The translations under genes and the position numbers were made by a program. A DNA stretch of 64,000 nucleotides from Escherichia coli (GTDB lineage Bacteria; Pseudomonadota; Gammaproteobacteria; Enterobacterales; Enterobacteriaceae): the NCBI RefSeq assembly GCF_030013595.1, contig NZ_CP122768.1; one strand, given 5' to 3'. Shown here one piece after another: positions 3,893 through 60,989 of this stretch; positions within the stretch are counted from its first letter, which is position 1; each line of letters begins with the position of its first letter. The notes beneath the pieces were generated by a model, which was not told the origin of the DNA, ran no database searches, and was given only the letters and a program-made list of their open reading frames with translations.

Positions 3893-4569
3893 CACCGGAC
3901 ATTATCCTGCAGCGTACCGGGATCGACGTGAGAGCTGTCGAACAGGGGGATGATGCGTGGCACAAATTACGGCTCGGCGTCATCACCGCTTCAGAAGTTC
4001 ACAATGTGATAGCAAAACCCCGCTCCGGAAAGAAATGGCCTGACATGAAAATGTCCTACTTCCACACCCTGCTTGCCGAGGTTTGCACCGGTGTGGCTCC
4101 GGAAGTTAACGCTAAGGCGCTGGCCTGGGGAAAACAGTACGAGAACGACGCCAGAGCCCTCTTTGAGTTCACTTCCGGCGTGAATGTTACTGAATCCCCG
4201 ATCATCTATCGCGACGAAAGTATGCGCACCGCCTGCTCTCCCGATGGTTTATGCAGTGACGGCAACGGCCTTGAACTGAAATGCCCGTTTACCTCCCGGG
4301 ATTTCATGAAATTCCGGCTCGGTGGTTTCGAGGCCATAAAGTCGGCTTACATGGCCCAGGTGCAGTACAGCATGTGGGTGACGCGAAAAGATGCCTGGTA
4401 CTTTGCCAACTATGACCCACGAATGAAGCGTGAAGGCCTGCATTATGTCGTGGTTGAGCGGGATGAAAATTACATGGCGAGTTTTGACGAGATGGTGCCG
4501 GAGTTCATCGAAAAAATGGACGAGGCACTGGCTGAAATTGGTTTTGTATTTGGGGAGCAATGGCGATGA
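3889..4569 (+). CDS. exo: Exo (lambda exonuclease, Red-alpha)
   Basis: 226 aa, matches recalled lambda Exo; overlaps bet stop. Confidence 0.95.
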
Positions 4570-4748
4570 AGCATCCTCACGATAATATCCGGGTAGGTGC
4601 GATCACTTTCGTCTACTCCGTTACAAAGCGAGGCTGGGTATTTCCCGGCCTTTCTGTTACCCGAAATCCCCTGAAAGCACAGCGGCTGGCTGAGGAGATA
4701 AATAATAAACGGGGAGCTGTATGCACAAAGCATCTCCTGTTGAGTTAA
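4566..4748 (+). CDS. exo-xis region small protein, orf60a-like
   Basis: 60 aa from second in-frame Met; position immediately after exo. Confidence 0.45.
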
Positions 4749-4912
4749 GAACGAGCATTGAGATGGCACATAGCCTCGCTCAAATTGGAGTCAGGTTTGT
4801 GCCAATACCAGTAGAAACAGACGAAGAATTTCATACGTTAGCCGCATCCCTTTCACAAAAGCTGGAAATGATGGTGGCGAAAGCAGAAGCAGATGAGAGA
4901 GACCAGGTATGA
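4721..4912 (+). CDS. exo-xis region small protein, orf63-like
   Basis: 63-aa ORF. Confidence 0.5.
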   Translation: MHKASPVELRTSIEMAHSLAQIGVRFVPIPVETDEEFHTLAASLSQKLEMMVAKAEADERDQV

Positions 4913-4988
4913 CAACCACTGAATGCATTTTTCTGGCAGCGGGCTTCATATTCTGTGTGCTTATGCTTGCCGACATGGGACTTGTTCA

Positions 4989-5204
4989 ATGACACATCAG
5001 CAAGAAAACGCCCTTCGCAGTATTGCCCGTCAGGCTAATTCTGAAATCAAAAAAGCCAGACAGCAGTTTCCGGATAAAAACGTCGATGACATTTGCCGTA
5101 GCGTACTGAAGAAGCACCGCGAAACGGTAACGCTGATGGGATTCACACCGACTCATTTAAGCCTGGCGATCGGCATGTTAAACGGCGTCTTTAAGGAACG
5201 GTGA
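4989..5204 (+). CDS. exo-xis region small protein, orf61-like (start uncertain; frame open from 4923)
   Basis: ORF in expected position; start codon choice unresolved. Confidence 0.35.
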   Translation: MTHQQENALRSIARQANSEIKKARQQFPDKNVDDICRSVLKKHRETVTLMGFTPTHLSLAIGMLNGVFKER

Positions 5205-5302
5205 GCATGAAAAACAAAATCATCATGGAGCTACAGGCTCCTTTTTTATTATTCGCATTCACCCTCAAGCGTATTAACCAACAATTCAGGGATTAATGAA
5301 AG

Positions 5303-5524
5303 ATGGCAGACATCATTGATTCAGCATCAGAAATTGAAGAATTACAGCGCAACACAGCAATAAAAATGCGCCGCCTGAACCACCAGGCTATATCTGCCAC
5401 TCATTGTTGTGAGTGTGGCGATCCGATAGATGAACGAAGACGCTTGGCCGTTCAGGGTTGTCGGACTTGTGCAAGTTGCCAGGAGGATCTGGAACTTATC
5501 AGTAAACAGAGAGGTTCGAAGTGA
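5303..5524 (+). CDS. exo-xis region C4 zinc-finger protein (DksA/TraR-like), orf73-like
   Basis: 73 aa with CxxC...CxxC (CCECGDPIDERRRLAVQGCRTCASC). Confidence 0.6.
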   Translation: MADIIDSASEIEELQRNTAIKMRRLNHQAISATHCCECGDPIDERRRLAVQGCRTCASCQEDLELISKQRGSK

Positions 5525-6069
5525 GCGAAATTAACTCTCAGGCACTGCGTGAAGCGGCAGAGCAGGCAATGCATGACGACTGGGGATTTGACGCAGACCT
5601 TTTCCATGAATTGGTAACACCATCGATTGTGCTGGAACTGCTGGATGAACGGGAAAGAAACCAGCAATACATCAAACGCCGCGACCAGGAGAACGAGGAT
5701 ATTGCGCTAACAGTAGGGAAACTGCGTGTTGAGCTTGAAACAGCAAAATCAAAACTCAACGAGCAGCGTGAGTATTACGAAGGTGTTATCTCGGATGGGA
5801 GTAAGCGTATTGCTAAACTGGAAAGCAACGAAGTCCGTGAAGACGGAAACCAGTTTCTTGTTGTTCGCCATCCTGGGAAGACTCCTGTTATCAAGCACTG
5901 CACTGGTGACCTGGAAGAGTTTCTGCGGCAGTTAATCGAACAAGACCCGTTAGTAACTATCGACATCATTACGCATCGCTATTACGGGGTTGGAGGTCAA
6001 TGGGTTCAGGATGCAGGTGAGTATCTGCATATGATGTCTGACGCTGGCATTCGCATCAAAGGAGAGTGA
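5521..6069 (+). CDS. ea22: Ea22
   Basis: 182-aa ORF in lambda ea22 position and size. Confidence 0.75.
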   Translation: MSEINSQALREAAEQAMHDDWGFDADLFHELVTPSIVLELLDERERNQQYIKRRDQENEDIALTVGKLRVELETAKSKLNEQREYYEGVISDGSKRIAKLESNEVREDGNQFLVVRHPGKTPVIKHCTGDLEEFLRQLIEQDPLVTIDIITHRYYGVGGQWVQDAGEYLHMMSDAGIRIKGE

Positions 6070-6260
6070 GATCGGTTTTGTAAAAGATAACGCTTGTGAA
6101 AATGCTGAATTTCGCGTCGTCTTCACAGCGATGCCAGAGTCTGTAGTGTCAGATGATGACCGTACTCAAACATCGGGTTGAGTATTATCTTACTGTTTCT
6201 TTACATAAACATTGCTGATACCGTTTAGCTGAAACGACATACATTGCAAGGAGTTTATAA

Positions 6261-6542
6261 ATGAGTATCAATGAGTTAGAGTCTGAGCAAAAAGATTGGG
6301 CGTTATCAATGTTGTGCAGATCCGGTGTCTTGTCTCCATGCAGACATCACGAAGGTGTTTATGTAGATGAAGGTATAGATATAGAGTCGGCATACAAATA
6401 TTCCATGAAGGTTTATAAGTCTAATGAAGACAAATCCCCATTCTGCAATGTGCGAGAAATGACTGATACCGTGCAAAATTATTATCACGAGTACGGTGGA
6501 AACGATACTTGCCCTCTCTGTACAAAACATATAGATGATTAA
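6261..6542 (+). CDS. ea8.5: Ea8.5
   Basis: 93-aa Cys/His-rich ORF in lambda ea8.5 position and size. Confidence 0.75.
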   Translation: MSINELESEQKDWALSMLCRSGVLSPCRHHEGVYVDEGIDIESAYKYSMKVYKSNEDKSPFCNVREMTDTVQNYYHEYGGNDTCPLCTKHIDD

Positions 6543-6630
6543 ACCCAATATTACATAACAATCCTCGCACTCGCGGGGATTTATTTTATCTGAACTCGCT
6601 ACGGCGGGTTTTGTTTTATGGAGATGATAA

Positions 6631-6798
6631 ATGCACTTCCGAGTCACAGGAGAATGGAATGGAGAGCCATTCAACAGAGTTATCGAAGCGGAGAACATCA
6701 ACGACTGCTACGACCACTGGATGATATGGGCGCAGATAGCACATGCAGACATAACCAATATTCGAATTGAAGAACTGAAAGAACACCAAGCCGCCTGA
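6631..6798 (+). CDS. Small ORF (55 aa) between ea8.5 and xis
   Basis: ATG 6631 to TGA 6796-6798, followed by hairpin plus T-run; below the 60-aa cutoff of the ORF track. Confidence 0.4.
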   Translation: MHFRVTGEWNGEPFNRVIEAENINDCYDHWMIWAQIAHADITNIRIEELKEHQAA

Positions 6799-6813
6799 TG
6801 GCGGTTTTTTCTT
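6789..6813 (+). terminator. Rho-independent terminator upstream of xis
   Basis: CCGCC-tgat-GGCGG hairpin followed by TTTTTTCTT. Confidence 0.4.
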
Positions 6814-6837
6814 GCGTGTAATTGCGGAGACTTTGCG

Positions 6838-7056
6838 ATGTACTTGACACTTCAGGAGTGGAACGCTCGCCAGCGACGCCCAAGAAGCCTTGAAACAGTT
6901 CGTCGATGGGTGCGCGAATGCAGGATATTCCCTCCTCCGGTTAAGGATGGAAGAGAATATCTGTTCCACGAATCAGCGGTAAAGGTTGACTTAAATCGAC
7001 CAGTAACAGGTAGCCTTTTGAAGAGGATCAGAAATGGGAAGAAGGCGAAGTCATGA
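6838..7056 (+). CDS. xis: Excisionase Xis
   Basis: 72 aa MYLTLQEWNARQRRPRSLETVRRWVRECRIF...; matches recalled lambda Xis. Confidence 0.95.
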   Translation: MYLTLQEWNARQRRPRSLETVRRWVRECRIFPPPVKDGREYLFHESAVKVDLNRPVTGSLLKRIRNGKKAKS

Positions 7057-8104
7057 GCGCCGGGATTTACCCCCTAACCTTTATATAAGAAACAATGGAT
7101 ATTACTGCTACAGGGACCCAAGGACGGGTAAAGAGTTTGGATTAGGCAGAGACAGGCGAATCGCAATCACTGAAGCCATACAGGCCAACATTGAGTTATT
7201 TTCAGGACACAAACACAAGCCTCTGACAGCGAGAATCAACAGTGATAATTCCGTTACGTTACATTCATGGCTTGATCGCTACGAAAAAATCCTGGCCAGC
7301 AGAGGAATCAAGCAGAAGACACTCATAAATTACATGAGCAAAATTAAAGCAATAAGGAGGGGTCTGCCTGATGCTCCACTTGAAGACATCACCACAAAAG
7401 AAATTGCGGCAATGCTCAATGGATACATAGACGAGGGCAAGGCGGCGTCAGCCAAGTTAATCAGATCAACACTGAGCGATGCATTCCGAGAGGCAATAGC
7501 TGAAGGCCATATAACAACAAACCCTGTCGCTGCCACTCGCGCAGCAAAATCAGAGGTAAGGAGATCAAGACTTACGGCTGACGAATACCTGAAAATTTAT
7601 CAAGCAGCAGAATCATCACCATGTTGGCTCAGACTTGCAATGGAACTGGCTGTTGTTACCGGGCAACGAGTTGGTGATTTATGCGAAATGAAGTGGTCTG
7701 ATATCGTAGATGGATATCTTTATGTCGAGCAAAGCAAAACAGGCGTAAAAATTGCCATCCCAACAACATTGCATGTTGATGCTCTCGGGATATCAATGAA
7801 GGAAACACTTGATAAATGCAAAGAGATTCTTGGCGGAGAAACCATAATTGCATCTACTCGTCGTGAACCGCTTTCATCCGGCACAGTATCAAGGTATTTT
7901 ATGCGCGCACGAAAAGCATCAGGTCTTTCCTTCGAAGGGGATCCGCCTACCTTTCACGAGTTGCGCAGTTTGTCTGCAAGACTCTATGAGAAGCAGATAA
8001 GCGATAAGTTTGCTCAACATCTTCTCGGGCATAAGTCGGACACCATGGCATCACAGTATCGTGATGACAGAGGCAGGGAGTGGGACAAAATTGAAATCAA
8101 ATAA
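7034..8104 (+). CDS. int: Integrase Int (tyrosine recombinase)
   Basis: 356 aa MGRRRSHERRDLPPNLYIRNNGYYCYRDPRTGKEF...; matches recalled lambda Int; overlaps xis. Confidence 0.97.
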   Translation: MGRRRSHERRDLPPNLYIRNNGYYCYRDPRTGKEFGLGRDRRIAITEAIQANIELFSGHKHKPLTARINSDNSVTLHSWLDRYEKILASRGIKQKTLINYMSKIKAIRRGLPDAPLEDITTKEIAAMLNGYIDEGKAASAKLIRSTLSDAFREAIAEGHITTNPVAATRAAKSEVRRSRLTADEYLKIYQAAESSPCWLRLAMELAVVTGQRVGDLCEMKWSDIVDGYLYVEQSKTGVKIAIPTTLHVDALGISMKETLDKCKEILGGETIIASTRREPLSSGTVSRYFMRARKASGLSFEGDPPTFHELRSLSARLYEKQISDKFAQHLLGHKSDTMASQYRDDRGREWDKIEIK

Positions 8105-8200
8105 TGATTTTATTTTGACTGATAGTGACCTGTTCGTTGCAACAAATTGATAAGCAATGCTTTTTTATAATGCCAACTTAGTATAAAAAAGCAGGCTTCA
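8105..8200 (-). other. attL: attL (P' arm plus 15-bp core GCTTTTTTATACTAA at 8178-8192, read on minus strand, plus B arm)
   Basis: Core TTAGTATAAAAAAGC on + strand; lambda P' arm sequence immediately 3' of int; bacterial B-arm bases continue into ybhC leader. Confidence 0.9.
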
Positions 8201-8238
8201 ACGGATTCATTTTTCTATTTCATAGCCCGGAGCAACCT

Positions 8239-9522
8239 GTGAACACATTTTCAGTTTCCCGTCTGGCGCTGGCATTGGCTTTTGGCGTGACGCTGACCGC
8301 CTGTAGCTCAACACCGCCCGATCAACGTCCTTCTGATCAAACCGCGCCTGGTACCTCTTCTCGCCCGATTCTGTCGGCAAAAGAAGCGCAGAATTTCGAT
8401 GCTCAACACTATTTTGCATCCCTGACACCAGGTGCGGCAGCGTGGAATCCTTCCCCGATTACCCTGCCTGCGCAACCTGACTTTGTTGTCGGCCCGGCGG
8501 GTACTCAAGGTGTAACGCATACCACGATTCAGGCGGCGGTAGATGCGGCAATTATCAAGCGCACCAACAAGCGCCAGTATATTGCCGTGATGCCTGGTGA
8601 GTATCAGGGAACGGTGTATGTCCCTGCCGCTCCGGGTGGAATTACTCTGTACGGTACAGGTGAAAAACCGATTGATGTGAAGATTGGGCTTTCCCTTGAT
8701 GGTGGCATGAGCCCTGCCGACTGGCGTCACGACGTCAACCCGCGCGGCAAATATATGCCAGGTAAACCGGCGTGGTATATGTACGATAGCTGCCAGAGCA
8801 AACGCAGCGACAGTATCGGCGTTCTCTGCTCTGCGGTCTTCTGGTCACAAAACAATGGCCTGCAACTGCAAAACCTGACCATCGAAAACACGCTGGGCGA
8901 TAGCGTAGATGCGGGTAACCATCCGGCGGTGGCACTGCGTACTGATGGCGACAAAGTGCAGATCAATAACGTCAACATTCTCGGTCGTCAGAACACCTTC
9001 TTTGTCACCAACAGCGGTGTGCAGAACCGTCTGGAAACCAACCGTCAGCCGCGTACTCTGGTGACCAACAGTTACATTGAAGGGGATGTGGATATCGTTT
9101 CTGGTCGCGGCGCAGTGGTGTTCGATAACACCGAATTCCGCGTGGTGAACTCACGTACTCAGCAAGAAGCGTATGTGTTTGCACCGGCAACACTGTCTAA
9201 CATCTATTACGGTTTCCTCGCCGTAAACAGCCGTTTCAATGCTTCCGGTGATGGCGTGGCGCAACTGGGCCGCTCGCTGGATGTTGATGCCAATACCAAC
9301 GGTCAGGTGGTGATCCGTGATAGCGCCATCAACGAAGGTTTTAACACAGCCAAACCGTGGGCTGATGCGGTGATCTCTAATCGTCCGTTTGCGGGTAACA
9401 CCGGCAGCGTTGATGATAACGACGAAGTACAGCGTAATCTGAATGACACTAACTACAACCGCATGTGGGAATACAATAACCGCGGCGTGGGTAGCAAAGT
9501 GGTTGCAGAGGCGAAGAAGTAA
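8239..9522 (+). CDS. ybhC: YbhC, outer-membrane lipoprotein of the pectinesterase fold (acyl-CoA thioesterase)
   Basis: 427 aa, lipoprotein signal (LTACSS); GTG start; attB-flanking position. Confidence 0.9.
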   Translation: MNTFSVSRLALALAFGVTLTACSSTPPDQRPSDQTAPGTSSRPILSAKEAQNFDAQHYFASLTPGAAAWNPSPITLPAQPDFVVGPAGTQGVTHTTIQAAVDAAIIKRTNKRQYIAVMPGEYQGTVYVPAAPGGITLYGTGEKPIDVKIGLSLDGGMSPADWRHDVNPRGKYMPGKPAWYMYDSCQSKRSDSIGVLCSAVFWSQNNGLQLQNLTIENTLGDSVDAGNHPAVALRTDGDKVQINNVNILGRQNTFFVTNSGVQNRLETNRQPRTLVTNSYIEGDVDIVSGRGAVVFDNTEFRVVNSRTQQEAYVFAPATLSNIYYGFLAVNSRFNASGDGVAQLGRSLDVDANTNGQVVIRDSAINEGFNTAKPWADAVISNRPFAGNTGSVDDNDEVQRNLNDTNYNRMWEYNNRGVGSKVVAEAKK

Positions 9523-9540: not shown

Positions 9541-10309
<769 letters not shown>

Positions 10310-10413
10310 ATCAGCATACTTGTCCTTAGCCTTCTGCAGTGACAGCTGGTAGTACAGCGTGCTTCTGGCCAGCCCTGCAGCCTTTAACAGGTCAGACTGG
10401 CAGTGTCCGCACC

Positions 10414-10944
10414 TCAGGCTCCGGATGACTTTCGTTTTTTCTCCAGCTCCTGGCGCTTTTTTTCCAGGAGATGCTCCTGCATGGCTTTCAGATATGCATT
10501 TTCTGCGCGAAGATAACGCAGCTCATTCTTCATCTCTTCCGGCGTCATGTTTGCCTCGTTTTCATGGGTATCATCAGAACGGGTCATGCTTTTCTCCTTC
10601 CTGCGCCTGATAAAGGCCTCATTACCAGATTTGCGGTAGCCTTTTATCCAGTTTTTAACCGTGTTGTGGCTGGGAATGTTAAACCGGGCAGCTACCCGGG
10701 GTAGAGACTCAGAATGCCCGAGAGCATAAAGAACCACGCAAAGTTTATCTTCAGGAGAATAGCTACGCTTGTGTCTGCAATCCAGTGCACGAGGACCGTG
10801 AAGAAGAAAAAGATTAATCCAGTGTGAGAGGCTGGTGTGAGAAAGTTGAAAGAGTTTTGCCGTAGAAATGATGCCTGCATGACCAGCCAGGTAATGATTT
10901 ACAGCGGCAAGTTTTACTTCAAATGAATGTTTCATAAACTGCAC
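10414..10944 (-). CDS. IS transposase OrfA (HTH plus leucine zipper)
   Basis: 176 aa; ends just after slippery heptamer A AAA AAG (+ strand T-run 10457-10463). Confidence 0.8.
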   Translation of the reverse strand: MQFMKHSFEVKLAAVNHYLAGHAGIISTAKLFQLSHTSLSHWINLFLLHGPRALDCRHKRSYSPEDKLCVVLYALGHSESLPRVAARFNIPSHNTVKNWIKGYRKSGNEAFIRRRKEKSMTRSDDTHENEANMTPEEMKNELRYLRAENAYLKAMQEHLLEKKRQELEKKRKSSGA

Positions 10945-13413: not shown

Positions 13414-13542
13414 ATATACTCTAAATAATTCGAGTTGCAGGAAGGCGACAAGCGAGTGAATCCCCAGGAGCTTACATAAGTAAGTGACTGGGGTGAGCGA
13501 ACGCAGACGCAGCACATGCAACTTGAAGTATGACGAGTATAT
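13414..13542. repeat. ERIC (IRU) element
   Basis: Contains GTGAATCCCCAGGAGCTTACATAAGTAAGTGACTGGGGTGAGCG; terminal ATATACTC / GAGTATAT. Confidence 0.8.
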
Positions 13543-35631: not shown

Positions 35632-35707
35632 TGGTGGGTGATGACGGGATCGAACCGCCGCCCCCCTCCTTGTAAGGGAGGTGCTCTCCCAGCTGAGCTA
35701 ATCACCC
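35632..35707 (-). tRNA. valZ: tRNA-Val (UAC)
   Basis: Reverse complement matches tRNA-Val(UAC), one base variant from the other copy. Confidence 0.9.
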
Positions 35708-35758
35708 GATACTGCGCTGGATACTACAAACTACTTCCACCGAACCCACCGTAATTAG

Positions 35759-35834
35759 TGGTGGGTCGTGCAGGATTCGAACCTGCGACCAATTGATTAA
35801 AAGTCAACTGCTCTACCAACTGAGCTAACGACCC
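35759..35834 (-). tRNA. lysW: tRNA-Lys (UUU)
   Basis: Identical tRNA-Lys copy. Confidence 0.9.
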
Positions 35835-42495: not shown

Positions 42496-43635
42496 TTAGT
42501 ACAGAGAGTGGGTGTTACGTTCAATATCTTCTTTGGTGATACGACCGAACATTTTCCAGTAACACCAGGCGGTGTAGAGCAGAATGATCGGTACCAGAAC
42601 CACCGCAACCCAAGTCATGACGTTAAGTGTCAGCTGGCTGGAAGTTGCATCCCACATTGTCAGACTTGCGTTCATCATGGTGCTGGACGGCATCACAAAC
42701 GGGAACATTGCGATACCGGCAGTCAGGATGATGCAGGCCAGCGTCAGGGAGGAGAACACAAACGCCCACGCGGCTTTATCCATACGTGCAGTCAGGATGG
42801 TCAGCAGCGGCAGAACCACACCCAGTGCCGGAATAGCCCACAGAATTGGCGTGTTGTTGAAGTTAACCAGCCATGCGCCAGCTTCACGAACCACTTCTTT
42901 ATTCAGCGGGTTAGAGGCTGCGTAATGGTCCATTGTCGATTTCACGACATAACCATCGATACCGTACATCACCCATACGCCAGCCAGTGCGAAACAGACC
43001 AGTGTCACCAGTGCCGCCACCTGAGCCGTTGCACGGGTACGCAGGTGCAGTTCGCCCACGGTACGCATTTGCAGATAGGTTGCGCCCTGAGTAATGATCA
43101 TCCCTACGCTCACCACGCCTGCCAGCAGGCCGAACGGGTTAAGCAGCTGGAAGAAGTTACCGGTGTAGTACAGACGCAGATATTCATCAACGTTGAACGG
43201 TACGCCCTGCAACAGGTTACCGAACGCTACACCAATCACCAACGGCGGAACGAAGCTACCAATGAAGATGCCCCAGTCCCACATGTTACGCCAGCGGGTT
43301 TCTTCAATCTTGGAGCGGTAGTCAAAACCGACCGGACGGAAGAACAAAGACGCCAGCACGAGGATCATCGCCACATAGAAGCCGGAGAACGCAGCGGCAT
43401 AGACCATCGGCCAGGCAGCAAAGAGTGCGCCGCCTGCGGTGATCAGCCAAACCTGGTTACCGTCCCAGTGTGGTGCGATGGAGTTAATCATAATTCGACG
43501 CTCGGTGTCGTTACGACCGAGGAAACGGGTGAGCATGCCCACCCCCATGTCGAAACCGTCAGTGACTGCAAAACCAATCAGCAGAACGCCAACCAGCAGC
43601 CACCAGATAAAACGCAATACTTCATAATCGATCAT
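42496..43635 (-). CDS. cydB: Cytochrome bd-I oxidase subunit II
   Basis: 379 aa. Confidence 0.95.
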   Translation of the reverse strand: MIDYEVLRFIWWLLVGVLLIGFAVTDGFDMGVGMLTRFLGRNDTERRIMINSIAPHWDGNQVWLITAGGALFAAWPMVYAAAFSGFYVAMILVLASLFFRPVGFDYRSKIEETRWRNMWDWGIFIGSFVPPLVIGVAFGNLLQGVPFNVDEYLRLYYTGNFFQLLNPFGLLAGVVSVGMIITQGATYLQMRTVGELHLRTRATAQVAALVTLVCFALAGVWVMYGIDGYVVKSTMDHYAASNPLNKEVVREAGAWLVNFNNTPILWAIPALGVVLPLLTILTARMDKAAWAFVFSSLTLACIILTAGIAMFPFVMPSSTMMNASLTMWDATSSQLTLNVMTWVAVVLVPIILLYTAWCYWKMFGRITKEDIERNTHSLY

Positions 43636-43650
43636 TTGACGACTCCTGTC

Positions 43651-45219
43651 TTAGCGTGCCGGCTGAGTAGTCGTGGAAGACTGCTCAAAGTGATAGCGAC
43701 CGGTTTTCAGGCTGCTTGGGCCGAGGCGTGCAAACTTGAACATTAAGAACAATTCTGCCACCAGGAACAGGGTATACAGGCCGCAAATCAGCACCATTGA
43801 GAAGATGAGATCGCCTGCGGTCAGTGACGAGTTCGCCACAGCTGTCGGCAGCACTTCACCGATAGCCCACGGTTGGCGGCCATATTCAGCCACAAACCAG
43901 CCCGCTTCTACAGCAATCCACGGCAGCGGAATACCGTACAGCGCGGCGCGCAGCAGCCATTTTTTCTCGCCAATGCGGTTGCGGATGACACTCCAGAAAG
44001 AGAGCGCGATGATTGCCAGCAGCAGGAAGCCACACGCCACCATGATACGGAACGCGAAGTACAGCGGCGCTACACGCGGAATGGAGTCTTTGGTTGCCTG
44101 TTGAATCTGCGCTTCAGTCGCATCAGCCACGTTTGGCGTATAGCGTTTCAGCAGCAGACCGTAACCGAGGTCTTTCTTCATGCTATTGAACTGGTCACGA
44201 ACCGCCTGGTCGGTAGAACCAGAACGCAGTTGCTCGAGCAGAGAGTACGCCTTCATCCCGTTACGAATGCGTTCTTCATGCTGCACCATCAGTTCTTTCA
44301 GGCCGATAACTGGAGTATCCACGGAACGCGTTGCAATGATACCCAGCGCGTAAGGGATCTGGATCGCAAATTTGTTCGTCTCCTCTTCCTGATCAGGAAT
44401 GCCGAACAGAGTAAAGGCAGCAGGCGCAGGTTGCGTTTCCCACTCGGCTTCAATAGCAGCCAGTTTGGTTTTCTGCACGTCGCCCATTTCGTAACCAGAT
44501 TCATCACCCAGAACAATAACAGACAGAACGGCAGCCATACCGAAGCTGGCAGCGATAGCAAAGGAGCGTTTAGCGAAGGCGAAGTCACGACCTTTCAGCA
44601 TATACCATGCGCTGATACCGAGGATGAACATCGCGCCAGTCACATAACCAGACGCTACAGTGTGAACGAATTTCACCTGAGCAACCGGGTTAAGCACCAG
44701 CTCGGAGAAGCTCACCATCTCCATACGCATAGTTTCAAAGTTGAAATCAGACGCGATTGGGTTTTGCATCCAGCCGTTCGCAACCAGAATCCACAGTGCG
44801 GACAGGTTTGAACCGAGCGCCACCAGCCAGGTGACACACATATGCTGAACTTTACCCAGACGATCCCAACCGAAGAAGAACAGACCTACAAAGGTGGATT
44901 CGAGGAAGAAGGCCATTAGACCTTCGATTGCCAGCGGCGCACCGAAGATATCCCCTACATAGTGGGAATAGTAAGACCAGTTAGTCCCGAACTGGAACTC
45001 CATGGTCAGACCGGTAGCCACACCCAGAGCGAAGTTGATACCAAACAACTTGCCCCAGAACTTGGTCATATCTTTATAAATCTGTTTGCCGGAAAGGACG
45101 TAGACCGTTTCCATAATGGCCAGCAGGAACGCCATACCGAGCGTCAGTGGCACAAAAAGGAAGTGGTACATCGCGGTCAAGGCAAACTGTAAGCGCGACA
45201 GTTCGACTATATCTAACAT
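43651..45219 (-). CDS. cydA: Cytochrome bd-I oxidase subunit I
   Basis: 522 aa from [15 protein letters not shown]. Confidence 0.95.
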
Positions 45220-45556
45220 CATGACTCCTTGCTCATCGCATGAAGACTCCGAGAGTGAACCCCGTTAGAAAGGGTCACACGCATGCCCCAATACAAAATT
45301 ATTTGCTCGCCTCTATCGTTGCCATTTCATCAAAAGAGGAAAAGACAATGATAAAAAAGTTACAAATATGTTAATGAATAAACCAAATTGATCCCGTAAT
45401 TATATTACGCCGCAAAATCCTTACAATAAACAGGTTTTTATTGAGCAAATTTGCATTTTTCGACAGTGATCAATTTATAGCGAAATTGTCACGATCTCAC
45501 CAATTTGATCTACGACAATTTATCGTGTTTTGCAGATTTTTTTCAAGAATTAAAAA

Positions 45557-45570
45557 TTGATTTATATCAA
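45557..45570 (-). promoter_or_regulatory. FNR-type site in cydA upstream regulatory region
   Basis: TTGATttatATCAA perfect FNR consensus. Confidence 0.45.
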
Positions 45571-46024
45571 AATCAACCAAATATGTTAATTATGTATAAA
45601 CCATAGATCATTGGTAATTTTATTGTTAATTTATTGTGAAATATTTATGCAACACAATTATTACAATGAAAAAGTATAGATAAAAAACCAGTGTTTTATT
45701 TAACAGAACCGCCCTATCCACTTTTTATAATACCAATTGATTAGAGTAGCCAATTTGTTGCTATTTTACATAACATATTTTTATCAAAGTTAATTGATTG
45801 TTGCCTTTATGAGCACCGGCCGTAAGCCCGTTATGTTATTGTTTCATTAGTAATAATCACTTAAATGTATCGATGAAACAGGTATGACTTAGCGGGAGTG
45901 ATTGTTTCTGAGTGAACAGAGACCACTTTCGCCTGATAAATGAAAAATGAGCGATTTTTGCAAGTTAGTTTTTCTATAGCCGAGTACGCTCAGCGCCTCG
46001 CTTGATTACAATGAGGTTGCTGCT

Positions 46025-46969
46025 ATGAGTCCTGATAATATCAGTTCTGCTGTCAATCGCTTCTCAGGTTGGCCATCTAATGATCCTCTAAAAACAGATA
46101 AAGAATCAATGACATCACCCATGACTGTGCAGGTAATAAAGATGATTGCCGCCATCCTTGACCCACATCGGATAGTCGTTGGAATCGATACACTTTATAC
46201 AACGCAGCGCGAAACATTTACCTCAGAGAGTCAACAGCTCATTGAATCAGCATTGCAAACACTTCATGTGATGAATTTAAATAACCTGGAAACAAATCTC
46301 GATGAGGAAGGTCACTATCTGGCTTTTGGATATAACGTTGACACTCCTGACAGAATAACCGTTTCTGCTTATAATGAAAAAAAGCCTGGCTGCTATGGCC
46401 AATGTCTTTTAATACAGGATGACGAAACAGACTTATTTAACCTGATAAAAGTTAAAATTTTTGAAGCCAGGCATAATTATGTCGCTCAATTGATGAGCGA
46501 TCCGGAATTTATGTTCAAATTTAGTTATAGCGCTCAACAAAATAGATTAGAACCTCATCTTCTGGTTCCCACTTATTTCCCTCTAAAAACAAACGAACCG
46601 GTTACGCAAGAGGATGTACTGTTACTTTATCGTTTCTTTAAAATGGATGGTGATTTTAATATATTAACATCAGATGAATACATGAGTATCATGACACCTC
46701 TAATGAAGTGTGAGCGTAGCATCCACGACCACAACAGGTATGTGACGGGCAAAGATCCCCTTCTTCTGGACTATCCTCCTTCTGGTAACCAGATATATTT
46801 CCATATTTTTCCTGACGAATCAGCAACACTAGTCCTTTATTTTTCAAACAATGACATTGAATGTTTCGTCTTTGAAAGAGATATTCCGAGCCAGTATCGC
46901 TTTTTCAAAATGTTTACCAATCTGGCACTGGTTATTGATCAGTTAACCGATGCCAATCAAATACTTTAA
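46025..46969 (+). CDS. Hypothetical protein, AT-rich accessory gene, no recognised domain
   Basis: 314-aa ORF in low-GC DNA where long random ORFs are unlikely; Ser/Pro/Asn-rich N-terminus. Confidence 0.6.
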   Translation: MSPDNISSAVNRFSGWPSNDPLKTDKESMTSPMTVQVIKMIAAILDPHRIVVGIDTLYTTQRETFTSESQQLIESALQTLHVMNLNNLETNLDEEGHYLAFGYNVDTPDRITVSAYNEKKPGCYGQCLLIQDDETDLFNLIKVKIFEARHNYVAQLMSDPEFMFKFSYSAQQNRLEPHLLVPTYFPLKTNEPVTQEDVLLLYRFFKMDGDFNILTSDEYMSIMTPLMKCERSIHDHNRYVTGKDPLLLDYPPSGNQIYFHIFPDESATLVLYFSNNDIECFVFERDIPSQYRFFKMFTNLALVIDQLTDANQIL

Positions 46970-47049
46970 TTTTTATATATTCCCTGTGGCAAATATTGCT
47001 AAACAATGCCCGGGGATTAATTTTTATTACTCACGGAAAGATTTAAATA

Positions 47050-47472
47050 ATGATCCCATCTCAAATCTCTTTCAACACCCTTCCTGTCAATGCAACATAC
47101 GCTTCAGAGACAACAGTTGACACACAAAAATTCTCTGACATCCTCTACTCAGCGGGGTGTTCCCTAAAGGATCTGGCTTATCTGAGCAGATGTCTGGCAT
47201 CAATACATCCGACTATCGCCAAAAACATTTATGAAACAGAAAATCTCAGCGATCAAAAATTACTACATATTGATTGCCGTAGTACAAATGAAATCAAGAT
47301 AAATATCTTTTTTGGTCAACAACGAGAAGGATTAATTGAAATTAGTTCTGACACAGTCATTTTTTCGATACTGTCTTCATTGATTGACTCCACCATTTCT
47401 AAATTTCAACACCAAAACCCCGTTAACGGTTCTGTAAATCCTGACCTATTGTATGAGGATTATACTGATTAA
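47050..47472 (+). CDS. Hypothetical protein, AT-rich accessory gene, no recognised domain
   Basis: 140-aa ORF 80 nt downstream of previous ORF, same strand, same low GC. Confidence 0.5.
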   Translation: MIPSQISFNTLPVNATYASETTVDTQKFSDILYSAGCSLKDLAYLSRCLASIHPTIAKNIYETENLSDQKLLHIDCRSTNEIKINIFFGQQREGLIEISSDTVIFSILSSLIDSTISKFQHQNPVNGSVNPDLLYEDYTD

Positions 47473-48019
47473 ATCCCTCCTGTCGCGAAAAATGGCCTGC
47501 GTTATTGCCAGACGTAATAAAACTTTTGATTAACGTTTCTCGTACTGGTAGCACCTTCATGTACTTTTCTTTTTTACGAAAAATCAAAAGAGCTAACAAA
47601 GGTCATAATTCGCATGAATCATTAATTATTTGTTATTTTCAACATTATTTTTACATTAAGCAGAGATGAATTGCAGTGAAATTCGACTTAATTTTTATGA
47701 AATGCATTTACTCATGGCTAAAGCCACGTCACAAAAATGCAAATTAGAAGTTGATCACAATTATCTCAATACATCAAATCAAGTTAATTTTAAAAATTTA
47801 ACATTCATGACACTAGTTGACATAACACACTGAATTAAAATGAGAATTTGGAAACACACTTTAAACAATCATTTCCCGAAAGACATTTTGAAAATAGATC
47901 AATTGCAACATTACGGTCAGATAAAGACACTCCTGTGATATTAAACCTGTGCCGTTATGAACGGCCATAAATACGACGTGTGTAACTTATTTTACTCTCT
48001 GTCTTACAAAGGATTACCC

Positions 48020-48469
48020 ATGAAGAAAGCAACACTTGTGATTGGCGTTATTGGCGCGGACTGCCATGCAGTAGGCAATAAAGTTCTGGACCGCGTTTTT
48101 AGCAACCATGGCTTCAGAGTCATTAATCTGGGCGTAATGGTCAGCCAGGACGAATATATTGATGCTGCCATTGAAACTGGCGCTGACGCGATTGTCGTCT
48201 CCTCTATCTATGGGCATGGCGATATCGACTGTCTGGGCATGCGCGAACGCTGCATCGAGCGTGGACTGGGTGACATCCTGCTCTATGTGGGCGGTAACCT
48301 GGTGGTCGGAAAACATGACTTCGCTGACGTGGAAACCAAATTTAAAGAGATGGGATTTGATCGCGTCTTTGCCCCAAGTCATGACTTAGAAGATGTTTGT
48401 CAGCTGATGGCCCACGATATCAACCAACGTCATGACGTTGATACTCGCATTCTTGAAGAGGCAATCTGA
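48020..48469 (+). CDS. Glutamate mutase sigma (S) subunit, B12-binding (methylaspartate mutase S chain)
   Basis: 149 aa from [21 protein letters not shown] (B12-binding DxHxxG motif). Confidence 0.85.
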
Positions 48470-52565: not shown

Positions 52566-53936
52566 ATGGCTCGTTCTTTTAAAGTCTTATCGCCAACGGC
52601 AATCCTCGGGTATGGATTCCCGGAAGAGAGCTTCCGTAAAGCGATGGCAGAATCGCCCGATCTGATCGCCGTTGATGCAGGCTCTTCCGATCCTGGCCCC
52701 CACTACCTCGGGGCGGGCAAACCGTTTACCGATCGCGCAGGGGTCAAGCGCGATCTGCGCTATATGATCACCGCAGGCGTGCAAAATAATATACCGGTGG
52801 TGATCGGAACGGCTGGCGGTTCTGGTGCCGCACCACACCTGGAGTGGTGCCGAGAAATAATTCATGAGATTGCCCGGGAAGAGCACCTCTCGTTCTCGAT
52901 GGCGTTGATCCCGGCAGACGTTGACAAAGCCATCGTCCACCAGGCGCTGGATAACGGCAAAATCACGGCGCTGGATTTTGTCCCGCCGTTAACCCACGAC
53001 GCGATTGACGAAAGTACGTATATCGTCGCGCAAATGGGCATCGAACCCTTCCAGCAGGCGCTGAAAGAAGGCGCGCAAGTGGTGCTGGGCGGGCGCGCTT
53101 ACGACCCGGCCTGCTTTGCTGCGCTACCGATCATGCAAGGCTTTGATGAAGGTCTGGCGCTGCATTGTGGGAAAATCCTTGAATGCGCGGCAATCGCCGC
53201 AACGCCCGGCTCAGGCTCTGACTGGGCGATGGGCATCATTGATGACAACGGCTTTACGCTGAAGACATTTAATCCGAAGCGTAAATTTACCGAAACGTCA
53301 GCGGCTGCACACACACTGTATGAGAAATCCGATCCCTACTTCCTGCCAGGACCTGGCGGCGTGTTGAACCTGAAAGACTGCACATTTAAAGCGGTCAATG
53401 ACGGCGAAGTGTACGTCAGCGGTTCTAAGCATGAAGAAACGCCGTATGCCCTGAAACTGGAAGGTGCGCGACGAGTGGGCTTCCGCTGTCTGACCATCGC
53501 AGGAACGCGCGACCCGATCATGATCGCCGGGATCGATAAAATCATCGATGAAGTCAAAACCAGCGTTTCGCGTAACCTGTCGCTCGACGATGACAGCATT
53601 CACATCAATTTCCACCTGTACGGCAAAAACGGGGTGATGGGCGACCATGAACCGATGCAAACTGCCGGGCATGAGCTGGGGATTGTCCTTGATGTAGTTG
53701 CACCGACCCAGGAAATTGCCAATAGCGTTTGCTCGCTGGTGCGCTCTACCATGCTGCACTACGGCTATGAAAACCGCATCGCTACCGCAGGCAATCTGGC
53801 GTTCCCGTTCTCCCCTTCTGATATCCAGGGCGGGCCGGTATACGAATTTTCCATATATCACCTGATTGAAGCCAACGACGCTCTGCGTTTTGATTTCCAT
53901 ATTGAACAGGTGACGCCAGAAGGAGTTCAGGCATGA
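52566..53936 (+). CDS. DUF1446 (AtuA-like) family protein
   Basis: 456 aa; family assignment from recalled sequence features. Confidence 0.6.
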   Translation: MARSFKVLSPTAILGYGFPEESFRKAMAESPDLIAVDAGSSDPGPHYLGAGKPFTDRAGVKRDLRYMITAGVQNNIPVVIGTAGGSGAAPHLEWCREIIHEIAREEHLSFSMALIPADVDKAIVHQALDNGKITALDFVPPLTHDAIDESTYIVAQMGIEPFQQALKEGAQVVLGGRAYDPACFAALPIMQGFDEGLALHCGKILECAAIAATPGSGSDWAMGIIDDNGFTLKTFNPKRKFTETSAAAHTLYEKSDPYFLPGPGGVLNLKDCTFKAVNDGEVYVSGSKHEETPYALKLEGARRVGFRCLTIAGTRDPIMIAGIDKIIDEVKTSVSRNLSLDDDSIHINFHLYGKNGVMGDHEPMQTAGHELGIVLDVVAPTQEIANSVCSLVRSTMLHYGYENRIATAGNLAFPFSPSDIQGGPVYEFSIYHLIEANDALRFDFHIEQVTPEGVQA

Positions 53937-59213: not shown

Positions 59214-59341
59214 ATATACTCTAAATAAGTCAAGTTGCAGGAAGGGAACAAATAATGAATTTCCAGAAGCTTACATAAGTAAGTGACCTGGGTGAGCGAA
59301 CATCGATGCAGCACATGCAACTTGAATTATGACAAGTATAC
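59214..59341. repeat. ERIC-like element, divergent copy
   Basis: Shares ...GCTTACATAAGTAAGTGAC(C)TGGGTGAGCGAAC...GCAGCACATGCAACTTGAA with ERIC at 13414-13542. Confidence 0.65.
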
Positions 59342-59591: not shown

Positions 59592-60989
59592 ATGCATCAT
59601 CTTTCAAGGCTTGATAAAGCCTTTCTGCGCAAAGGGATCCAACTTTCCCGCGCCAACAATATTGTTTCATTATCTCGTCCATCAGGTGCCAGTGCCCGCG
59701 TACTGCTGCCGGACGAACTGCCGCTGGAAGAAAAAGCAGTAACACAACTGCTTGATTTTGCAGAAGTGAAGCTACCAGACCACCCAGGTTATGTGCGCCA
59801 GACGTGCGCGACGCCAGATTTTCATCCCGGCAATGGAGTCCCCGTTGGCGCGGTGGTGGCCTCAACGCCGGATTTAGTCATTCCCGCCGCCATCGGCACC
59901 GATATTTCTTGTGGCATGCGGCTGCTGACGACCGGATTAACACTTGAGCAAGCCGAAGCGCATAAAGACGTCATCGCTCAGCGGTTAACGCAAGTGCTAC
60001 TGCAAAATGAGCGCGATGTTCCGTTATCCGCACAGGCGTTCACCGCGCTTTTTGATGGCGGACCGGCAGATTGCGTGTCGACCTTGCCATCAGCAGGTCT
60101 CTGGACACGCACGAATATCCCCCGAATGGTACAAGAGATTGACCGCTGCATTGGGCTTAACGAGCATAACAGTCATTCGCGTTATGCCCCACCCGCCCTG
60201 CTGGCAACGGACCGCGCATTACTCCGCGATCCTTGTCTGGGTACGCCGGGTTCAGGTAATCATTTTATTGAACTTCAGGTCGTTGATAGCGTGGTTGATC
60301 GCCATGTAGCCTGGCAACAAGGGCTGAAAACAGGCGATATTGTGGTGATGATCCACAGTGGATCGCGAGATGTTGGCTTTTACGTCGGAAGACGCTGGAT
60401 GGATCGCGCCCGTGCTGAATGGCCCACCGGACATAAACATCCACAAAGCGGGTTATATGGTCTGGCAGGCGGACTGGCGGAGGAATATCTACAAGCGATA
60501 GGAATGGCGGCGCGTTACGCGTGGTTAAATCGCGTCACAATTGCCGAAATGGTGCGCGTATGTCTCGCCAATCTCTTTCATCAGGACAATTCGCATCTGG
60601 TGGTGGATGTGCCGCATAACATCATCCTTCGCGAGCATGAAATGAATATTCATCGCAAAGGTGCAACACCGGCACGAGTGGGCGATCTGGCATTAATCCC
60701 CGGTTCAATGGGCGATTATTCGTGGCTTGCAGTCGGTTGCGGCAACCCGGAGTGGCTGTGGTCATGCAGTCACGGAGCAGGACGCAGCCAGCGTCGACAG
60801 GCCATGCGCTCAAGCGCGACTGAAGAGTCAACGCTGCCGTGGCAATGCGTCACATTGCGTGAAGAACGACGTCTTGAAGAAGCGCCAGCGGCTTATAAAG
60901 ATATTGGTCCGGTTATCGAAGCCCAACAAGAAGCCGGATTAATTCAGCCAGCGGTCAGATTTCGACCGTGGTTAACGTTTAAGGCATAA
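59592..60989 (+). CDS. RtcB-family RNA ligase homolog (orphan)
   Basis: 465 aa; motifs GTDISCGMRL, GSGNHFIEL, HSGSRDVG, SHGAGRS. Confidence 0.75.
   Translation: MHHLSRLDKAFLRKGIQLSRANNIVSLSRPSGASARVLLPDELPLEEKAVTQLLDFAEVKLPDHPGYVRQTCATPDFHPGNGVPVGAVVASTPDLVIPAAIGTDISCGMRLLTTGLTLEQAEAHKDVIAQRLTQVLLQNERDVPLSAQAFTALFDGGPADCVSTLPSAGLWTRTNIPRMVQEIDRCIGLNEHNSHSRYAPPALLATDRALLRDPCLGTPGSGNHFIELQVVDSVVDRHVAWQQGLKTGDIVVMIHSGSRDVGFYVGRRWMDRARAEWPTGHKHPQSGLYGLAGGLAEEYLQAIGMAARYAWLNRVTIAEMVRVCLANLFHQDNSHLVVDVPHNIILREHEMNIHRKGATPARVGDLALIPGSMGDYSWLAVGCGNPEWLWSCSHGAGRSQRRQAMRSSATEESTLPWQCVTLREERRLEEAPAAYKDIGPVIEAQQEAGLIQPAVRFRPWLTFKA

Follow-up and report, generated by a model that had tools for sequence, protein, structure and literature searches.

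orfA and orfB, an AT-rich gene pair restricted to Escherichia, between cydA and the glutamate mutase operon

The gene pair and its surroundings

In the stretch of Escherichia coli DNA analysed here (64,000 nucleotides of contig NZ_CP122768.1, referred to as the window), two co-directional genes lie between cydA and the glutamate mutase (glm) operon: orfA (46025..46969, + strand; 314 amino acids, ATG start, N-terminus MSPDNISSAVNRFSGWPSN) and orfB (47050..47472, + strand; 140 amino acids, ATG start, N-terminus MIPSQISFNTLPVNATYASETTVDT). Both were taken from the list of open reading frames (ORFs), and an earlier note on this DNA had given them the same positions and lengths. They are separated by a spacer of 80 nucleotides (46970..47049, + strand), which measures 79-81 nucleotides across alleles, has an identity of 0.83-0.99 with 0-3 gap events among E. 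coli alleles, and in which a terminator scan found no terminator-like site. The GC content in 300-nucleotide windows was 0.34-0.42 over both ORFs (about 37%) and fell to 0.26-0.29 in the intergenic stretches that border the pair. The values for cydAB (42496-45222, minus strand) were 0.50-0.59 and those for glmS/L/E (48020 onward) 0.50-0.54. The pair and its borders are thus indeed more AT-rich than the flanking cyd and glm genes (0.26-0.42 versus 0.50-0.59), as the note had remarked. It had likewise placed the pair at the K-12 position of mngB, and in a K-12-type genome mngB was found to adjoin the cydA upstream region.

Both genes have long been annotated, and the protein families themselves are undescribed. 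In O157:H7 Sakai orfA and orfB correspond to ECs_0767 and ECs_0766, flanked by cydA (ECs_0768) and glmS (ECs_0764), and they carry the label 'hypothetical protein' (WP_001310136-type and WP_000613119-type, respectively). The Sakai copies occupy the same cydA-glmS locus and are 96-97% identical at the DNA level, the differences being allelic only. Many complete E. coli genomes match the region at 96-100%, with both ORFs again annotated as 'hypothetical protein', and a literature search by locus tag and accession yielded no publication, name or function for either gene.

Coding status and selection

Long open frames are unlikely to occur by chance in such DNA, as had been argued before: assuming ~6% stop codons at the local composition, a hand estimate gives a 314-codon open frame a chance of ~1e-9 per start. 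The 140-amino-acid frame of orfB is by length alone weakly improbable, and we took orfB as real because it is conserved and has a low ratio of non-synonymous to synonymous polymorphism (pN/pS), not because of its frame length. The pooled pN/pS over 10 E. coli alleles, all intact, was 0.40 for orfA and 0.27 for orfB, and for orfB the rate of non-synonymous change (dN) was below the synonymous rate (dS) at p = 0.01.

For orfA, E. coli was also compared with E. albertii. The proteins share 65% identity with 0 indels, and 213 of the 945 nucleotides differ, divided 64/54/95 over the three codon positions. The ratio of non-synonymous to synonymous divergence (dN/dS) was 0.43 (Fisher p = 2.7e-7). When the same substitutions were placed at random in a neutral simulation, the orfA frame acquired 7.8 stops on average and stayed open in 0.02% of the trials (P(no stop) = 0.0002). 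Flanking non-coding DNA showed 3-7 gap events in the same comparisons and the ORFs none. Within orfB, residues 26-117 form a nearly invariant core, with variability at both ends. The dN/dS values of the neighbouring genes were lower (glmS 0.05-0.2; cydA 0.006). Judged by these substitution patterns, orfA and orfB are genuine protein-coding genes that evolve fast under purifying selection.

Relatives and protein properties

In a phmmer search of 1.84 billion cluster representatives, orfA recovered nothing but pieces of itself, and a word-seeded search of 5.8 billion clusters returned only Escherichia/Shigella proteins for the two genes. In the latter, orfA matches were at least 65% identical and intact orfB matches at least 82%, the lower-scoring orfB matches being truncated or frameshifted copies. 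Searches of Pfam, NCBIfam, PADLOC, PHROGs and PDB sequences gave nothing meaningful for either protein. The Pfam near-matches (E ≥ 0.14) and an orfB match to phrog_24553 (E = 0.056, function unknown) were treated as noise. The absence of a recognised motif or homologue, noticed earlier by eye, therefore extends to the family, structure-sequence and cluster searches, and none of the searches run produced the match to characterised proteins that would have counted against an undescribed family. Within the reach of these collections, orfA and orfB are restricted to the genus Escherichia (Shigella included) and belong to no described family.

The products are acidic and mildly hydrophilic overall: orfA encodes a protein of 36.3 kDa with an isoelectric point (pI) of 4.7 and a grand average of hydropathy of -0.28, and orfB one of 15.7 kDa with values of 4.65 and -0.13. 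The predicted secondary structure of both is a mixture of helix and beta-meander, and neither sequence contains a visible catalytic, nucleotide-binding or DNA-binding motif. A beta-beta-beta-alpha module that seemed to be shared (two in orfA, one in orfB) was rejected as unsupported, with Smith-Waterman scores at z -0.8 to 0.5 relative to shuffles and an hhalign probability of 1.1%. The N-termini are rich in Ser, Thr, Pro and Asn, as described in the note: S/T/P/N/Q make up 47% (orfA) and 50% (orfB) of the first 30 residues, against 29-32% of the remainder of the two proteins.

History of the locus

The two genes are part of an Escherichia-specific AT-rich cassette, which by blastn spans 45861..47862 (~2.0 kb) relative to E. 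coli LF82, where homology stops at 45860, and 45638-47862 (~2.2 kb) relative to other genera. Homology to other Enterobacteriaceae stops at ~45570-45637 and resumes at 47863-47944, and the DNA shared between these genera and the window is limited to the control region near cydA (45223 to ~45637) and a short glmS-proximal element. In Salmonella enterica, Pseudescherichia vulneris and two Enterobacteriaceae contigs, glmS is divergent from cydA and orfAB is missing; there the cydA-glmS gap consists of 0.85-1.2 kb of AT-rich DNA, and the gene order is glmS-glmL-glmE-mal-AtuA-DUF4387-gltP. In C. koseri, mngB-mngA-mngR lies directly upstream of glmS, again without orfAB. The note's reading of an AT-rich two-gene module of unknown function is supported, and other genera lack the module at this locus.

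E. coli, E. albertii and a cryptic Escherichia clade all have the cassette at one and the same position in the chromosome, and its divergence tracks that of the species, which argues that it is old and was inherited vertically within the genus. Between E. coli and E. albertii the synonymous divergence was 0.51 for orfA and 0.29 for cydA. The note had also spoken of horizontal acquisition; a recent acquisition of this kind is not supported: inheritance was vertical at one locus across Escherichia, and no donor was detectable. The alignments identify the cassette as a ~2.2 kb insert into the ancestral cydA-glmS intergenic region and bracket its age between the split from Salmonella and the later split between E. 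coli and E. albertii.

Two candidate origins were tried and dropped. For a de novo origin from ancestral intergenic DNA, sensitive blastn against Salmonella, Pseudescherichia, C. koseri and LF82 gave scores that did not exceed those of shuffled controls. For terminal inverted repeats, the candidate was a 24-nucleotide, 75% complementary pair (45884-45907 and 47863-47886); the 47863-47886 arm lies inside DNA that is conserved in the cassette-free genera, and the inverted repeat is therefore not an element end.

Distribution and decay

Among the 5426 complete E. coli genomes searched, the pair was found in 1135, never in more than one copy and, save for one 'plasmid' record, on the chromosome. 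A plasmid collection (PLSDB) contained three E. coli records with the pair (0.73-4.9 Mb), all non-mobilizable; the two of 4.9 Mb (NZ_CP141089.1 and NZ_CP134663.1) are evidently mislabelled chromosomes and the third measures 730 kb. No copy was found by tblastn of both proteins against phages. The integrity of the genes was assessed in 40 E. coli carriers drawn down the similarity ranking. Two of these had insertion sequence (IS) insertions, one had two single-base deletions in orfA, and one had 14 homopolymer indels that are probably a sequencing artefact; the remainder had full-length spans, so that ~90% of the sampled carriers are intact. As to individual strains, both genes of SCU-482, the one with the 14 homopolymer indels, are annotated 'frameshifted', as is orfA of FDAARGOS_946.

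Outside E. coli the two genes have different fates. The orfA cluster in E. albertii has 131 members, most of which, among those listed, are 314 amino acids long, and orfB is reduced there to a 31-codon remnant beside an intact orfA. An intact orfA also occurs in some cryptic-clade Escherichia strains, and orfB is known only from E. coli, Shigella and the cryptic clade. A scan of GTDB species for orfA recovered E. albertii, one Escherichia sp. and, apart from these, just two contigs from mis-binned metagenome-assembled genomes; the latter are labelled 'Collinsella sp.' and 'Citrobacter sp.' and are 98-100% identical to E. coli orfA. In E. albertii the two genes are not kept together. The disruption by frameshifts that had been named as grounds for doubting the genes was found in some lineages, either as such or as interruption by IS or repeat elements, yet most carriers are intact. 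Of the two, orfA emerges as the autonomous, longer-lived gene, and E. albertii, at least, can do without orfB.

This distribution bears directly on the possibility that the N-termini, whose composition the note had called one often seen in secreted effectors, are secretion signals, and that orfA encodes a type III secreted effector with orfB as the class I chaperone that would keep it ready for export. The arrangement resembles Tir-CesT and EspF-CesF of the enterocyte effacement locus (LEE) in that a larger protein is combined with a small acidic protein of ~15 kDa and in the Ser/Thr/Pro/Asn-rich N-termini. The size and pI of the orfB product (15.7 kDa, 4.65) are typical of class I chaperones, orfB adjoins a larger gene, the first 30 residues of both proteins have the S/T/P/N/Q content of 47-50% given above, and LEE-bearing strains are found among the carriers (O157:H7, enteropathogenic E. 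coli (EPEC) E2348/69 and E. albertii). Such an N-terminal composition is, however, not specific to secretion signals, and orfB showed no resemblance to CesT or CesF in sequence or profile (hhalign probability <1% for both). Moreover, the pair occurs in 1135 genomes and escN-escV in 697 of the 5426, which leaves at least 438 carriers without LEE. The ten E. coli alleles, all intact at a pN/pS of 0.27-0.40, come mostly from strains not known as LEE carriers (O157 and the E2348/69 derivative are known carriers; the LEE status of the others was not individually checked). E. albertii has kept orfA and lost the supposed chaperone, and the pair, in marked difference to the LEE systems, has no prophage, pathogenicity-island or other mobile-element context and no homologue on phages or mobilisable plasmids. 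The searchable text of the papers on the Ler and Pch regulons makes no mention of the orfA and orfB locus tags. In view of the LEE-free carriers, the loss of orfB in E. albertii and the missing island context we consider the effector hint unsupported and very improbable; the maintenance of orfAB is independent of the LEE type III secretion system.

Leader and expression

Directly 5' of orfA lies a conserved leader/promoter region of 95 nucleotides (45930..46024, + strand). Between E. coli and E. albertii it is 87% identical, and 93% at 45943-46002, as compared to 58-65% just upstream of it and 77.5% in the orfA coding sequence. Within E. coli the leader is at least 99% identical, as a single copy, in 1105 of the 1135 carriers, whereas for the segment with the ORF pair (46025-47472) only 225 carriers are this similar. 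That the control region is under tighter constraint than its gene suggests that expression is regulated and selected and not accidental. A Shine-Dalgarno sequence (GAGG, 46013-46016) is found 8 nucleotides before the orfA ATG. The search for other signals was negative: a promoter scan upstream of orfA found no consensus sigma-70 promoter on the + strand, a terminator scan found no terminator after orfB, with promoter and terminator counts at the level of shuffled sequence, folding of the leader RNA gave no significant fold (z = -0.37), and Rfam had no match at E ≤ 1 over 45000-48200. The pairs in the leader alifold are invariant and therefore uninformative on structure.

Two small features of the leader can be recorded, both of which lack statistical support. 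The first is an upstream ORF of 10 codons (ATG at 45947, TAG at 45977-45979), whose frame E. coli, E. albertii and the cryptic clade all keep open, with non-synonymous changes. The second is a hairpin in which CCUC (45996-45999) would base-pair with the GAGG of the orfA Shine-Dalgarno sequence.

Published RNA-seq data for strain EDL933 list four ORFs annotated between glmS and cydA, with 0-2 reads per kilobase per million mapped reads (RPKM) in lysogeny broth and no value above 12 across the 11 conditions, where the mapping of tags to genes is our inference; the range for cydA was 2-212. The earlier proviso that the ORFs might never be transcribed thus applies in part, as the genes are near-silent (RPKM 0-12) in that strain. 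A high AT content relative to the genome flanks and near-silence, both of which the cassette displays, are traits of H-NS-silenced DNA. The searchable part of the supplement to the paper on Pch/H-NS chromatin immunoprecipitation does not list orfA or orfB.

The near-zero transcription in the 11 EDL933 conditions would fit the view that the pair consists of functionless relics: open frames that decay in silenced DNA, or young de novo ORFs without a role. The same view could draw on the nucleotide divergence of orfA, which is about that of its non-coding flanks, on the repeated and independent disruption, and on the lack of homologues anywhere. Against it stand the significant deficit of dN relative to dS (p = 2.7e-7 and 0.01 for orfA and orfB, respectively), the 314 codons of orfA that stayed free of stops and indels across the split between E. 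coli and E. albertii (neutral P = 0.0002), the intactness of ~90% of the sampled carriers, and a leader that is more conserved than the coding sequence, which implies selected control of expression. We therefore regard relics as an improbable explanation.

Relation to the glm operon and to cydAB

The position of the pair suggests a connection with its neighbours, as accessory or regulatory proteins either for glutamate fermentation (glmSLE-mal) or for cytochrome bd-I (cydABX). In line with the former, orfAB is co-directional with and directly upstream of glmS, and glmSLE and orfAB were found in equal numbers of complete E. coli genomes (1135 each); in line with the latter, orfA is always divergent from cydA, whatever its other flank. 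The enterobacterial methylaspartate (glutamate mutase) gene cluster has been described by Kronen and Berg (2015, PMC4682846). The pair is physically adjacent to this cluster and co-inherited with it in E. coli, and is not a conserved member: Salmonella and Pseudescherichia have the glm operon beside cydA, and C. koseri has it beside mngR, with identical gene order and in all cases without orfAB. Conversely, E. albertii, which has no glm operon, has kept orfA, and the pair is kept where glm is destroyed: in the E2348/69 derivative, orfA and orfB are intact beside a glm operon that is truncated after glmS by ISEc13. The co-occurrence of orfAB and glm in E. coli is thus explained by their physical linkage. 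As regards cytochrome bd-I, most E. coli have cydAB without orfAB, and a regulatory role does not agree with two acidic proteins that have no DNA-binding motif. There seems only a slim chance that the pair serves either neighbour, and orfA and orfB are not part of the glutamate mutase pathway.

The glmS-proximal element (47863..47944, + strand; core 47878-47907, TTGAAAATAGATCAATTGC) lies outside the cassette and downstream of orfB. Its core is 90-97% identical over 29-30 nucleotides (47878-47906/7) in C. koseri, Pseudescherichia and the two Enterobacteriaceae contigs and is also conserved in the Salmonella alignment, all of these genera being without orfAB. The element is probably the operator or promoter of the glutamate mutase operon, and it points to a control region downstream of orfB that belongs to the glm operon itself, which again argues against orfAB as glm accessories. 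The element, AGAAAGAnATTTTGAAAATAGATCAATTGC, is found ~115-140 nucleotides upstream of glmS, in intergenic DNA that is otherwise not alignable, and holds an imperfect dyad TTGA-N7-TCAA.

A possible conflict module

Another alternative is that orfAB represents an undescribed conflict module, i.e. a toxin with its immunity protein or antitoxin, or a two-gene anti-phage defence system, located in a variable hotspot. The cydA-sucD interval is indeed hypervariable, with mngRAB in K-12-type genomes, a tetratricopeptide repeat (TPR) protein in LF82, the glm island in the window, and an outer-membrane-like gene without a glm operon in E. albertii. As in toxin-immunity and defence cassettes, two adjacent, fast-evolving genes lie in a hypervariable interval between core genes; they are also AT-rich orphans and were sporadically lost in some lineages. 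Defence and toxin systems that are already known have a scattered distribution owing to horizontal transfer. The inheritance of orfAB, in contrast, was strictly vertical, at one locus within one genus, without copies on phages or mobilisable plasmids. In addition, the pair is not co-retained in E. albertii, where orfA occurs without orfB, a state that would be intolerable for a toxin-antidote pair if orfB were the antidote, and the 80 nucleotides between the genes leave no translational coupling. Neither protein has a recognisable nuclease, ATPase or other effector-type motif, and neither was matched by Pfam, NCBIfam, PHROGs or any of the families of PADLOC-DB 2.0.0, which covers systems up to 2023. 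On balance a conflict module is an unlikely explanation.

Favoured explanation and its significance

The explanation that we favour, to which we assign a rough probability of 0.55 as a whole, is that of a genus-restricted orphan pair, probably silenced, with a conditional binding role. The cassette arrived or arose as one piece between cydA and glmS in an early ancestor of Escherichia, and has since been passed on vertically, with loss or erosion in many lineages. Under ordinary conditions it would be off, most likely by H-NS-type silencing of AT-rich DNA, and it could be switched on via the conserved 95-nucleotide leader in some niche-specific condition. The proteins, in the best reading cytoplasmic and with a conditional role, may then act by the binding of partners and not by catalysis, with orfB as an auxiliary to orfA. 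Binding is preferred because no conserved catalytic, nucleotide-binding or DNA-binding motif is visible. The parts of this explanation differ in strength. That orfAB consists of genuine Escherichia-only genes, which came in as an early AT-rich insert and were passed on vertically with patchy loss, is held with high confidence; the mode of action is put forward tentatively and may well be wrong.

Several points weigh against the favoured explanation. H-NS binding, the inducing condition, the interaction between orfA and orfB and an action by binding are all steps that we infer. Decay is evident in more than one lineage: the E. albertii type strain has a frameshifted orfA, S. dysenteriae a truncated orfB, Escherichia sp. 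MOD1-EC7003 has both genes broken by insertions of the enterobacterial repetitive intergenic consensus (ERIC), and the 40 sampled E. coli carriers included the two IS insertions and the frameshifted orfA mentioned above. The constraint on orfA is weak, with a divergence from E. albertii (22.5%) about equal to that of the neighbouring non-coding DNA. The AlphaFold models are too poor for a statement on the fold (predicted local distance difference test 46.6 and 40.1). Finally, neither protein appears in the searchable tables of the O157 proteome and of Sakai ribosome profiling, which possibly represent subsets.

The pair shares many features with the taxonomically restricted accessory genes (orphans) that lie in AT-rich, H-NS-silenced chromosomal DNA of enterobacteria: low GC content, limitation to a genus, lack of homologues, near-silence, elevated dN/dS and patchy loss. 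It differs from that class in being old and syntenic across Escherichia species, where a recent strain-specific acquisition might be expected, and in carrying a strongly conserved leader. As it stands the finding has little weight: neither gene has a phenotype, published data show hardly any transcription, and nothing ties the pair to virulence machinery. Silenced lineage-restricted orphan genes are already well known, and the present case exposes no mechanism and would not surprise a specialist. Nevertheless, orfA and orfB are among the few genes of O157, EPEC and extraintestinal pathogenic E. coli that have no relatives in billions of sequences and are yet selected, which makes them good candidates for orphan-gene studies. 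The history of the locus is unusually clear, with a bracketed insertion and independent decay by frameshift, IS and ERIC, and the conservation of the leader speaks for a specific regulatory input; experiments could identify this input, which would then show when the genes come into use. A stronger claim, namely that orfA and an accessory orfB found a new, leader-controlled family, which arose in Escherichia or was captured by that genus alone, with a specific and as yet undescribed cellular job, we consider unlikely. If it were true, this job could be a new conflict or defence function, or a gut-niche adaptation tied to the adjacent respiratory/fermentative switch, and the age bracket would make the pair a clean case study of the fixation and regulation of young genes.

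Further observations on the neighbourhood

The ERIC inserts in the orfA/orfB region of MOD1-EC7003 are ~127 nucleotides long and contain the ERIC1R primer sequence; two copies are full (contig positions 6344-6475 and 7084-7213) and one is partial (6731-6787). Related copies were seen in the window (13414-13541 and 59214-59340) and in the LEE region of Sakai (contig 35664-35790).

In the E2348/69 derivative, E. coli O127:H6 EPEC1, the stretch 4007-9283 reads cydA, orfA, orfB, glmS, ISEc13, a mngA fragment, mngR and sucD. ISEc13 is an IS4-family element, and the truncated glm operon abuts the mng remnant, an arrangement that hints at an earlier state in which this site held both glm and mng, like C. 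koseri today.

The cydA upstream control region (45223-45860) is polymorphic within E. coli: K-12-type genomes match 45352-45595 only, at ~81%, and B2 strains match 45300-45860 at ~90%. On the other side of the pair, the AtuA/DUF1446 gene (52566-53936, + strand), located 3' of the methylaspartate ammonia-lyase gene, has no NCBIfam match and is annotated in Sakai as a second '3-methylaspartate ammonia-lyase', a mis-annotation that was pointed out by Kronen and Berg (PMC4682846).

Two ORFs near sucD deserve mention as well. In an E. albertii-type contig, a 258-amino-acid ORF (9907-10683) with a signal-peptide-like start, a beta-rich sequence and no NCBIfam match has the orfB remnant on one side and sucD on the other; the copy of the E. 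albertii type strain is truncated. In the window, a 465-amino-acid ORF (59592-60989, + strand) by sucD matches models of the RtcB-family RNA ligases with its C-terminal half, at a score well under the curated cut-offs (204 versus 407 bits), its N-terminal 210 residues lying outside the match.

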